Assembly: GCF_902652985.1 (NCBI RefSeq)
Contig: NC_047019.1
Coordinates: 33,604,001 to 33,668,000, forward strand
Reading direction: 5' to 3'
Length of the DNA: 64,000 nt
DNA from: Pecten maximus
Taxonomy: Eukaryota
Shown: positions 19,849 through 28,793 of the stretch, one piece after another
Numbering within the stretch: position 1 is the first letter of the stretch
Layout: the number at the start of each line of letters is the position of its first letter
Made by a program: the position numbers and the translations under genes
Notes under the pieces: generated by a model
What the model saw: only the letters and a program-made list of their open reading frames with translations
Told to the model about the DNA's origin: nothing
Database searches by the model: none

Positions 19849-19894
19849 ATGTATCGGCTATTGCTGTTGATTTGTGGAATTACTGCGTATTCTG
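19849..19894 (+). CDS. Gene 1 exon 1 (signal peptide)
   Basis: ATG at 19849, MYRLLLLICGITAYS, donor G|gtaaat phase 1 matching the exon 2 acceptor. Confidence 0.8.
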
Positions 19895-26200: not shown

Positions 26201-28793
26201 GACTGAATGCTTACAAATCAGACGACACTGGTTACATTCTTTAGACGACAAATACCAAATAAATTATCTATTATGTAAATGATCGGATGCTAGTACGTGT
26301 AGTACCTTAACTCTTACTTACATGTCTATATCTTATAGAAATCTTACTCACATGTCGATATCTGATAGAAATCTAACTCACATGTCTATATCTTATAGAA
26401 ATCCTACTCACATGTCTATATCTTATAGAAATCTTACTCACATGTCGATATCTTATAGAAATCTTACTCACATGTCTATATCTTATCGAAATCTTACTCA
26501 CATGTCTATATCTGATAGAAATCTTTAACAGCATGGTCGACATTCTTAAGAGTGAATAAACTAACAGATATGACAAAACTGTAAAGAGAAGACATTTTTG
26601 ACCATCATTTGATTCTTTTTAACAGGAAGCCTCTGTTCTTTAACTCTTTTACAAAAAATGGAATCCACATAATAGAAGACTTATGGGATTCGACGCAGAG
26701 ACATTTTAAAAACGATCCAGTTATATAGGAAAGATACATAAATAAGAGGGAATTGTATATCTGAATTGGCAAACTTAAAGCTGATATACCGGCAAAATAT
26801 AAAAGATTATTAAGAGAGGAAGAAATGATTAATGAGGATAACATCTATCCACGCTTAGATTCTGTCTTAAATATTCTAGATCGAACTAATAGACACATCG
26901 AGCATAATAAACTTAAGCTAAAGACAATAAGCGTTAAATAATAATGAACCGAAAGTTCAAAATAAATGGGAAAACATTTACGGAAACCAATTTCTGCGGA
27001 ATGATATCTGACTAAACTGTTTTAACATATTGATGGATACAAAAATTAAGGAATTTCAATGCAAGTGTTTATATCAATCATTATATACAGACATAAAAAA
27101 TCAAACTTGGAAGTACTGACGGAAAATGCTATTCCTGCAAAACTGACAATGAAGATACTCAACATTTATTTTTTAGATGTGAATTCACTAAAATTATATT
27201 GAAATATGGAGAAACTATAATGAAGGACACTTTACCAGATTATACCACTGAATTTACTCAATAAGGAGGAAAATGTAACTCTTGGCTACCGGGGTGAAAT
27301 CATTTTACCATTCTGGTAAATACTGTCATCTGTACCATTAAATGGATAATATGGAAAGGAAGAAAAGATAAACATAACAACACACATCCAAACATAGAGG
27401 TTACAAAACTAAAATTTAGGAGACAACTGAAAATGCCCCTTTTTTGCGTGCAATTGACTTGTGTTCTCAAGGCAGGCAATGAATGTCTTCATTAAAGATA
27501 TTTTGATATCACAGACTAAACTGTGTTTCAGATACCCAGATTTAACCAATGCATTCCACGCAAACTATAACTCGGTGATAGCACACTACCTCACAAACGG
27601 TATCCACGAACACCGACTAGGGTACATCGACGGTGGGTATGACGGCAGATGGACGATCTCAAACGGGAAGGACCTGTTCATCAGTGCTTCCAAGCGTATG
27701 GGAGGCGCTATAGACAGCCTCGTTTGGAACAACAAACAAATGATCAACATGTACGACCATGGGCGGGAGTTACAAATGGCGTGTAATTCCGACACGTACA
27801 CGGAGTGTTATAACCCTACAGAAGCCGGGGGTAGGGACGACTCCAGGCACGAAACAACTCACACCCACATTCAGTGGGTGAGAGCACATGGCGACACTTT
27901 GGAATCAGAGGTAAGTCATGACTAAAAAACAGAAGTTGAGACCTAATATTTCGTATCCACCTTTGCCCCTTTTGTAACGATACAGTTGACGTTACCTGAA
28001 CTATTTAGTTAATCTATCGGGCCTACAATCTATGTTTTGTTTAGATGTGTCAAAAACTTGACTGGAACAGCAAGTTTTATACAATTTGTAACGGTATCAA
28101 TTCAGTTATAAATACACTATGTCCAAATAAAGACAAACGGAAAGCATGTTGTATAAAGTATTCAATGACACAGTCCCTCACATTGTATGGTGATTACAGG
28201 TACACCCGGCCTTTTGGTTACGGCCAGGAACACACGAGAAAAGAGCAGTACAATCAGGCTGTCACAGAGGAAGCCCTTCATTGACCCATCAGTCAACATA
28301 TGCCTATCCATTTTGGAAGCAGGTACGCATCGGTGTCCATGGAATGTCCCATGCAATTGAGTTCATGTCAAACTTCACCCTTGCAGGGGATTGGCCGCAT
28401 GACTTGCGGTACATTCAGATGGAAGCACCTACCGGCTACATGCCCGGTGAATTCACTACTGCATATAGATTCAATACTAAAACATTATCCCTGGAGAATC
28501 ATGGATCTAGCTTGGAGCCTCCGGTAGTGTCCACAGACGACGGACAGTACGCGATGGGGGTGTACTCGCCACCTGGACAGGACAGTGACGTGTTTATGTA
28601 CTATGGTGTTTCTTTGCGACTTGGCGGGACATCATTTACTGGAAGTACCAATAAATGGAACGTCGTGTACCGGAAGAGTCGGTTCACTTCCGGTGTGCAT
28701 CATCAGGTGTATAAAACCTACATATGCGTAGGAACACTTAATATGGTGACAGGCTGTCTTCATACACTCATCCAAGACGTACCACATATCTGA
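19849..28793 (+). CDS. Gene 1: secreted uncharacterised protein, 397 aa, 4 exons (19849-19894, 20232-20406, 27532-27910, 28200-28793); signal peptide, two YPD...H-x4-G-x2-E-x-R repeats and a bacterial-type C-terminal domain
   Basis: Exon lengths 46+175+379+594=1194 nt, all introns GT..AG with phases 1, 2, 0, no internal stop. Protein: MYRLLLLICGITAYSDAVDLASPEVFDAQFYLNNYPDI...AHWLSLGIAEGRQGCGSFHSKQYVTRYPDL...AHYLTNGIHEHRLG...MGGAIDSLVWNNKQMINMYDHGRELQ...ECYNPTEAGG...VHPAFWLRPG...MEAPTGYMPGEF...DVPHI*. AATAAA lies 14 nt after the stop. Confidence 0.88.
20017..20155. repeat. 29-bp minisatellite, about 5 copies, in gene 1 intron 1
   Basis: TGTTTGACGTTTACCCTAATCCTTTAAGA, period 29. Confidence 0.95.
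20232..20406 (+). CDS. Gene 1 exon 2
   Basis: Acceptor ttttctgtag|AT, donor AG|gtatat; encodes repeat 1 and the start of repeat 2. Confidence 0.88.
20620..21410. repeat. 24-bp minisatellite (CACAGATAATCTACGATATACCAT)
   Basis: Period 24, gene 1 intron 2. Confidence 0.93.
22180..26183. repeat. 50-bp satellite (GTAACTATTTGTCAGGAGTAACTTGACTCACTGTACTTACTAGACACCAT), about 64 units
   Basis: Period 50; interrupted by a MITE at 22524-23322. Confidence 0.97.
22524..23322. mobile_element. Tc1/mariner (pogo-type) MITE
   Basis: Perfect TIR CCGTAATTTCTTGCGTATTGCCCGC / GCGGGCAATACGCAAGAAATTACGG; TA duplicated (22522-22523, 23323-23324) inside a satellite unit; subterminal GCGGGCTAT repeats. Confidence 0.9.
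26311..26525. repeat. 30-bp minisatellite, about 7 copies
   Basis: TCTTACTCACATGTCTATATCTTATAGAAA. Confidence 0.95.
26540..27430 (+). mobile_element. Decayed L1/Tx1-like LINE ORF2 C-terminal fragment
   Basis: Zinc knuckle CYSCKTDNEDTQHLFFRC at 27127; A-rich interrupted frames; boundaries approximate. Confidence 0.65.
27532..27910 (+). CDS. Gene 1 exon 3
   Basis: Acceptor gtgtttcag|A, donor GAG|gtaagt; YPDLTNAF...GDTLESE. Confidence 0.9.
28200..28793 (+). CDS. Gene 1 exon 4 (terminal)
   Basis: Acceptor gattacag|GTA phase 0, in frame with ORF 28281-28793, TGA stop. Confidence 0.9.
   Translation, partial: VHPAFWLRPGTHEKRAVQSGCHRGSPSLTHQSTYAYPFWKQVRIGVHGMSHAIEFMSNFTLAGDWPHDLRYIQMEAPTGYMPGEFTTAYRFNTKTLSLENHGSSLEPPVVSTDDGQYAMGVYSPPGQDSDVFMYYGVSLRLGGTSFTGSTNKWNVVYRKSRFTSGVHHQVYKTYICVGTLNMVTGCLHTLIQDVPHI

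Follow-up and report, generated by a model that had tools for sequence, protein, structure and literature searches.

A four-exon scallop gene encoding a candidate secreted polysaccharide-cleaving enzyme with protist and bacterial relatives

We identified a gene in the scallop Pecten maximus which encodes a candidate secreted polysaccharide-cleaving enzyme and which belongs to a family shared with other molluscs, protists and bacteria. The gene lies in a stretch of 64,000 nucleotides (contig NC_047019.1, positions 33,604,001 to 33,668,000 of the forward strand; hereafter the window) and corresponds to the uncharacterised locus LOC117327850 [protein XP_033740947.1, 397 amino acids]. The account that we favour, with a probability of roughly 50%, is that of a secreted enzyme which cuts wall polysaccharides, has been inherited vertically in bivalves and gastropods, derives from a protist and is ultimately bacterial. 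A preliminary description of the window had instead proposed a gene built from bacterial modules and taken directly from a bacterium, which then gained introns and an animal signal peptide.

Gene structure and transcripts

The intact gene of four exons and 397 amino acids announced in the preliminary description matches this RefSeq record. Translation of the four exons gives a spliced frame of 1194 nt with one stop at its end, and all three introns have GT-AG borders, with phases 1, 2 and 0 in that order. The database protein matches exon 3 at 100%, and its sequence is the same as that of our translation. The features of the gene are:

19849..19894 (+): exon 1; residues 1-15, predicted signal peptide, then a phase-1 intron; N-terminus identical to that of the RefSeq protein
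19895..20231 (+): intron 1; 337 nt, GT-AG, carrying a tandem array of five 29-bp units
20232..20406 (+): exon 2; helical repeat 1 (FDAQFYL...EGR) and the first part of repeat 2; 3' end spliced to exon 3 in 4/4 runs
20407..27531 (+): intron 2; 7125 nt, GT-AG, phase 2, with tandem arrays of 24-, 50- and 30-bp units inside
27532..27910 (+): exon 3; remainder of repeat 2 and start of the beta-supersandwich, with D149, H150, R152, Q155, E165, N168, T170, E171 and D177
27911..28199 (+): intron 3; 289 nt, GT-AG, phase 0, absent from RNA contigs in 4/4 runs
28200..28793 (+): exon 4, coding part; remainder of the sandwich (W206, K240, E275, Y280, Y335, K352, W353), clade-specific C376/C386, C-terminal helix and stop
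28794..28821 (+): 3' untranslated region; AATAAA at 28807, poly(A) attached at 28821 (one run, X9)

RNA contigs, which the preliminary description had named as a check of the junctions, have introns 2 and 3 spliced out in four of four runs from four studies (one run is recorded as RNA and three were guessed to be RNA). In each of the four, the contig sequence that abuts exon 3 at 27529 corresponds to the last part of exon 2. For the junction of exons 1 and 2, we rely on orthologues and the RefSeq model. The locus was the sole match in searches of its own genome and appears to be single-copy. The four-exon scallop gene is thus real, and contamination, against which the preliminary description had already argued, is rejected because the introns carry host repeats, the window lies 33.6 Mb into a chromosome-scale contig (C5) and orthologues are present in 16 genera.

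The motifs quoted in the preliminary description are all present in the translation, and its hand count was accurate: the protein contains 25 histidines (6.3%) and seven cysteines, six of which lie past the leader (63, 158, 166, 221, 376 and 386). The two internal repeats of about 37 amino acids each align with a pairwise score of 54, which none of 1000 shuffles reached (maximum 43). Hydrophobicity, in an 11-residue window, peaks at residues 4-14, and the protein is predicted to be secreted. The predicted signal peptide on the phase-1 exon need not have been gained in animals, because hydrophobic leaders or export signals are present in non-animal relatives too. A conserved histidine-rich metal site was considered and rejected, since only 4 of the 25 histidines are conserved across 15 or all 16 of the molluscs compared.

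Predicted fold and candidate function

An AlphaFold2 model built on a 100-sequence alignment (predicted local distance difference test score 95.1, predicted template modelling score 0.92) places the helical repeats at residues 28-97 and an all-beta domain at residues 113-378, followed by a C-terminal helix. The main domain is predicted to be a galactose-mutarotase-like beta-supersandwich, and the match of the model to carbohydrate-active folds bears out the likeness suggested in the preliminary description. The best match among 48,161 solved chains was the endo-1,3-fucanase GH174A (Fun174A, 8jd7; Z 21.5, root-mean-square deviation (rmsd) 3.2 Å, 262 residues aligned), followed by a second GH174 endo-1,3-fucanase, Fun174Sb, with fucotetraose (9k1g; Z 20.7, rmsd 3.4 Å, 261 residues) and by P19 of the chlorovirus PBCV-1 (Z 20.1, rmsd 3.2 Å, 238 residues). 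The next matches, a galactosaminidase and a PL26 lyase, scored Z 17.3. Foldseek results agreed, and chlorovirus models were the top viral fold matches.

Conservation was assessed in 269 non-redundant rows, drawn from the 347 of 372 sequences with enough domain cover. Sixteen residues are near-invariant (93-100%): D149 (99%), H150 (94%), R152 (100%), Q155 (99%), E165 (93%), E171 (94%), D177 (93%), W206 (98%), K240 (93%), E275 (95%), Y280 (98%), Y335 (94%), K352 (98%) and W353 (93%), together with N168 and T170. All 16 are kept in the scallop, and the set, which would cluster in the groove of the domain, looks like an active site. No Pfam or NCBIfam family scored above its curated cut-off for the scallop exons or the full protein, and in 100 family members the same libraries matched only appended domains. 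Relatives are fused to GH76 (P0301), SASA esterase (P0257, L021) and CBM60 (P0045) domains, and also to PG_binding_1, LamG, PKD and a T9SS tail. The repeat by itself accompanies a glycosyltransferase or a GH25 domain in other proteins (P0117, P0169), in line with the association proposed in the preliminary description.

Because near-invariant Asp, Glu, His, Arg, Lys, Tyr and Trp residues are combined with fusions to carbohydrate-active domains, the scallop protein is likely to be secreted and to hydrolyse, in an endo-acting manner, wall polysaccharide that comes from food or microbes; polysaccharide cleavage in a broader sense has about two chances in three. As P19 and GH174 do, the curved sheet would form a groove, in which the carboxylates D149, E165/E171, D177 and E275 would supply the acid/base and the nucleophile or water-activating roles, and a sugar chain, anionic or neutral, would be held by R152, K240 and K352 together with W206, Y280, Y335 and W353. 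The two repeats may tether the enzyme to a cell-surface glycan, and the enzyme would digest filtered or grazed microbes and algae. Many carriers of the family feed on microbes.

P19, the minor capsid 'finger' protein of PBCV-1 (8H2I), is the only real sequence match in PDB (profile E 8.9e-6 and 3.2e-6); a single scallop exon gave only noise at E 0.87 against the same sequences. In the profile alignment the family's E275 falls on a Glu of P19 and its KW on a KW, and the DHGR/NPTE segment is unaligned at the sequence level. The scallop model shares with P19 an arch-like antiparallel beta-sandwich and a C-terminal helix. P19 differs in that it is part of the virion and has a hinge at its N-terminus, and its activity is a proposal: according to passages of PMC9617893, there is rod-like density in its trench and the authors propose a wall-degrading lyase.

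With GH174, described in part of PMC12534559 as dominated by beta-sheet, the predicted model shares such a catalytic fold over 261-262 residues. By sequence, the scallop protein is not a GH174 member; its family has N-terminal helical repeats and two cysteine pairs as features of its own and occurs in soil and freshwater organisms as well. Passages of PMC11943901 give D119, E120 and E218 as critical residues of Fun174A. A modelled bacterial fragment, running from the equivalent of D149 to just beyond that of E275, aligned with 8jd7 residues 117-243 (Z 4.8), and the DHGR loop with D149 would fall beside D119/E120 if PDB and paper numbering agree. The remaining mutarotase-like domains (PL26, PL4, GH38/GH2 accessory domains and aldose 1-epimerases) resemble the model in overall fold, but their scores are lower (Z 12-17), identity is 4-12%, and the scallop family has no Pfam match.

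Several observations weigh against an enzymatic reading of this kind. The fold is common to mutarotases, YidC and the non-catalytic domains of GH38 and GH2. Identity to GH174 in the structural alignment is only 11-12%, profiles of 100 and 139 sequences retrieved no GH174 chain at E<=10 from the PDB sequence set, and in the fragment alignment the equivalent of E275 extrapolates to about residue 235 of 8jd7, off E218, a position derived from the range ends, with PDB and paper numbering possibly differing. No recurrent polysaccharide-utilisation context was found in 92 scanned proteins (neighbours of 18 bacterial loci and family members).

As to genomic context, one PL10 pectate lyase lies near an Opitutae copy; at this locus (L034) a Maf gene and the lyase are upstream. 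About 37 near-identical Verrucomicrobiota (Opitutae) loci among L014-L080 have neighbours in common, and neighbourhood clustering of 98 loci mostly reflects these, the neighbouring Pfam domains pointing to no common pathway.

Among other functions, a non-catalytic glycan binder (a lectin-like protein, an agglutinin or a mucus or shell matrix component, with a histidine-rich surface possibly for metal) is unlikely but comes closest to the hydrolase. The fold is frequently non-catalytic, and histidine content is 3.3-7.6% in molluscs versus 1.4-3.1% in full-length relatives of protist-like or bacterial type, although few of the positions concerned are conserved. Also, E275 is replaced by Val or Ala in some gastropod copies (P0021, P0026, P0027, P0051, P0062, P0064), which may be non-catalytic paralogues. 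The near-invariant acidic residues, however, resemble a catalytic set and are kept in the scallop, and the poor conservation of individual histidines given above also counts against this reading.

Somewhat less probable is another sugar chemistry on the same fold, by a polysaccharide lyase, an epimerase or a mutarotase. The fold is also that of lyases of families PL26 (Z 17.3) and PL4 (Z 15.3) and of aldose epimerases (Z 13-14), the conserved His, Tyr, Arg and Lys would fit lyase chemistry, and P19 has been proposed as a lyase. Against this, the best-scoring structures are hydrolases, which exceed the lyases by about 3 Z units, and the conserved set includes several carboxylates.

A more specific version of the hydrolase reading concerns fucoidan. 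According to the portions of the sources consulted, fucoidan-degrading activity occurs in the digestive gland of Pecten maximus, the enzyme there being termed a fucosidase (PMC6245444); further such activities are listed for Patinopecten, Haliotis, Littorina and Lambis (PMC10094035), and the Lambis and Patinopecten enzymes are called unclassified (PMC11943901). Four of these five genera (Pecten, Patinopecten/Mizuhopecten yessoensis, Haliotis, Littorina and Lambis) carry the gene, and its predicted fold is closest to a fucanase, which makes it a candidate for the unclassified mollusc digestive-gland fucoidanase activity. The gene is also found in freshwater mussels and Pomacea; because the family has freshwater and soil members, fucoidan need not be the substrate. 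That the family is a new glycoside hydrolase family bridging GH174 and P19, acting as an endo-fucoidanase behind part of the digestive-gland activity and acquired from a protist before the bivalve-gastropod split, is in its entirety a long shot.

Distribution and origin of the family

Three word-indexed protein searches were performed, from 5600 candidates, with 44 of 97, 107 of 1203 and 120 of 159 matches listed, and organism names were looked up for 30 clusters altogether. Among the matches listed and these clusters, the family occurs in eleven bivalve genera (Pecten, Argopecten, Mizuhopecten, Ylistrum, Ostrea, Saccostrea, Pinctada, Mytilus, Sinanodonta, Potamilus and Solemya) and five gastropod genera (Haliotis, Littorina, Batillaria, Babylonia and Pomacea). 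Several copies each are present in Littorina, Batillaria and Sinanodonta. The preliminary description knew of no characterised animal family of this type, and indeed no named animal outside Bivalvia and Gastropoda, nor any named fungus, plant or choanoflagellate, appeared among the matches listed, although bacteria at about 30% identity did.

Contrary to what the preliminary description implies, the family is not restricted to bacteria. EukProt proteins of Soliformovum irregulare, Arcella intermedia and Andalucia godoyi, which we take to be two amoebozoans and one jakobid, belong to the family, as does an entry labelled ACA1_134270, presumably a locus of Acanthamoeba. The full layout of two repeats and domain is present in a fourth EukProt protein (P0228). 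The bacterial homologues that were predicted do exist: 217 of 224 pattern matches in a GTDB scan are relatives. With a family profile, the number of representatives recovered was 1311 at E<=1e-30 and rose to 12,045 at E<=0.001, the latter count probably inflated by repeat-only matches and with the best 150 of the 12,045 listed, without names. The domain is also encoded on 18 uncultivated-virus contigs (L083-L100; 26-35% identity), and a phage collection gave a repeat-region match in one record only.

The complete layout is found in 6 of the 80 bacterial loci kept, in Myxococcales, Polyangia, Archangium, Ideonella and two deltaproteobacteria (32-38% identity). Since it is thus present in Myxococcota, in Ideonella and in one EukProt protein, this layout is, judging from these sequences, older than molluscs and was not assembled within them; the idea of a gene put together from separate bacterial modules falls.

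In a quick tree of 112 domain rows, the molluscs fell into a 33-row group (support 99) with EukProt proteins, unnamed rows and no named bacterium. In a careful tree of 64 chosen rows they formed one group (93/89), with the row P0134 next to them (100/99). Within the bivalves Solemya branched first and then Sinanodonta, an order that agrees with the bivalve species tree. The C376/C386 cysteine pair was present in 53 of the 54 rows of the clade of molluscs and protists, the lone miss being truncated, and in none of the 215 rows outside. In a tree of 42 repeat-bearing rows, for which 22 of 64 such rows, long-branch or distant ones (including Archangium and the cysteine-pair member P0058), were left out and the two cysteine columns were removed, the 24 cysteine-pair rows were one side of a branch at 99/98, and P0053 shifted to the bacterial side. 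Approximately unbiased (AU) tests rejected three groupings of molluscs and P0134 with bacterial or bacterial-like groups (p 0.010, 0.024 and 0.022).

On these grounds the gene was, in all probability, not obtained directly from bacteria, contrary to the preliminary description. The results suggest a single old presence in the ancestor of bivalves and gastropods, most likely through lateral entry via a protist, which is an even bet. In the sequence of events that we favour, a protist lineage would have received the gene from bacteria, the bivalve-gastropod ancestor would have taken it from that lineage, and inheritance would have been vertical since. Laterally acquired animal enzymes such as the bilaterian alpha-amylases offer a parallel, with patchy occurrence in animals, introns, secretion and protist or bacterial relatives (PMC7003070, as far as the available part of this source goes); the scallop family differs in having no described activity and in having protist-type nearest relatives.

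Other results count against the favoured origin. Separation of molluscs plus eukaryote-like rows from bacteria had a support of 86/90 in the 64-row domain-only tree, and the 54-row clade had a FastTree support of 0.56 (0.94 with one extra row). In the 42-row tree Haliotis grouped with bivalves, and gastropods were not monophyletic. A fourth AU test did not reject molluscs with three bacterial-like rows (p 0.12), and the groups for all four tests were defined after the trees had been viewed. The eukaryotic nature of 28 of the 32 cysteine-pair members that are neither molluscs nor their sister is deduced; because these 28 lack names and the contigs that carry some of them measure 6-114 kb, not every member need be a eukaryote. 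The three named EukProt proteins lack the repeats, and the sister lineage of the molluscs (P0134, P0156, P0225) could be another animal phylum. This lineage is sister to all mollusc sequences, with 36-38% domain identity to them, and has mollusc-like extra cysteine motifs.

The more serious of the other origins, though still unlikely, is that the gene is an ancient eukaryotic one with the same enzymatic role, which amoebozoans, jakobids and molluscs retained by vertical descent while other lineages lost it on many occasions, without transfer to animals. The place of the molluscs within a clade of Soliformovum, Arcella and Andalucia proteins with a common cysteine pair would fit this, as would an animal identity of the sister lineage. 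It requires many independent losses, however, and the absence of named non-mollusc animals, fungi, plants and choanoflagellates among the matches listed, which reach down to bacteria, speaks against it, as does an Atlas cluster that is 86% Eukaryota with Mollusca commonest.

Least favoured, and improbable, is an origin in which a bacterium such as a myxobacterium passed the gene straight to the mollusc stem and introns were gained afterwards: the spliceosomal introns and transcripts in a host genome, the full layout in bacteria, the far greater bacterial diversity of the family and the fourth AU test are in its favour, but protist-type rows stand between molluscs and bacteria, the cysteine-pair clade holds no named bacterium and three AU tests rejected such groupings.

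Other elements in the window and implications

Further elements were noted in the window. Within intron 2, at 22524-23322, a 799-bp insert with terminal inverted repeats of about 25 bp and TA at both flanks splits the 50-bp tandem array and looks like a non-autonomous DNA transposon. The others are:

18472-18801 (+): presumably a decayed LINE-type retroelement end, by motif; no Pfam match
32316-32867 (-): likely decayed LINE-type retroelement end; weak zf-RVT match, E 0.003
41234-47437 (+): patatin-like phospholipase exon fragments; E 3.2e-8 for 41850-42032, weaker at 41234-41470 and 47120-47434
2000-10200, 14456-15448 and 43945-45144: long tandem arrays giving spurious open frames

A literature search found no paper naming any of the accessions and motifs searched, although supplementary lists of transferred genes could mention the family, and among the papers listed for gene transfer in molluscs none dealt with this family, going by titles and abstract openings. 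The family is large, with its 1311 representatives, yet neither Pfam nor NCBIfam has a model for it and the literature searches gave no trace of it. It combines an enzyme-like core with a predicted fold that links it to a fucanase family described only recently and to the giant-virus protein P19, and because of the conserved core and these ties a single assay would inform the family, GH174 and P19 alike. The mollusc fucoidanases are listed as unclassified in the portions of the reviews consulted, and the gene is a concrete candidate in genera with such activity. Its spread over bacteria, amoebae, a jakobid, bivalves and gastropods offers a clean test case for protist-to-animal transfer versus repeated loss, in which the identity of the P0134/P0225/P0156 lineage decides between the two.

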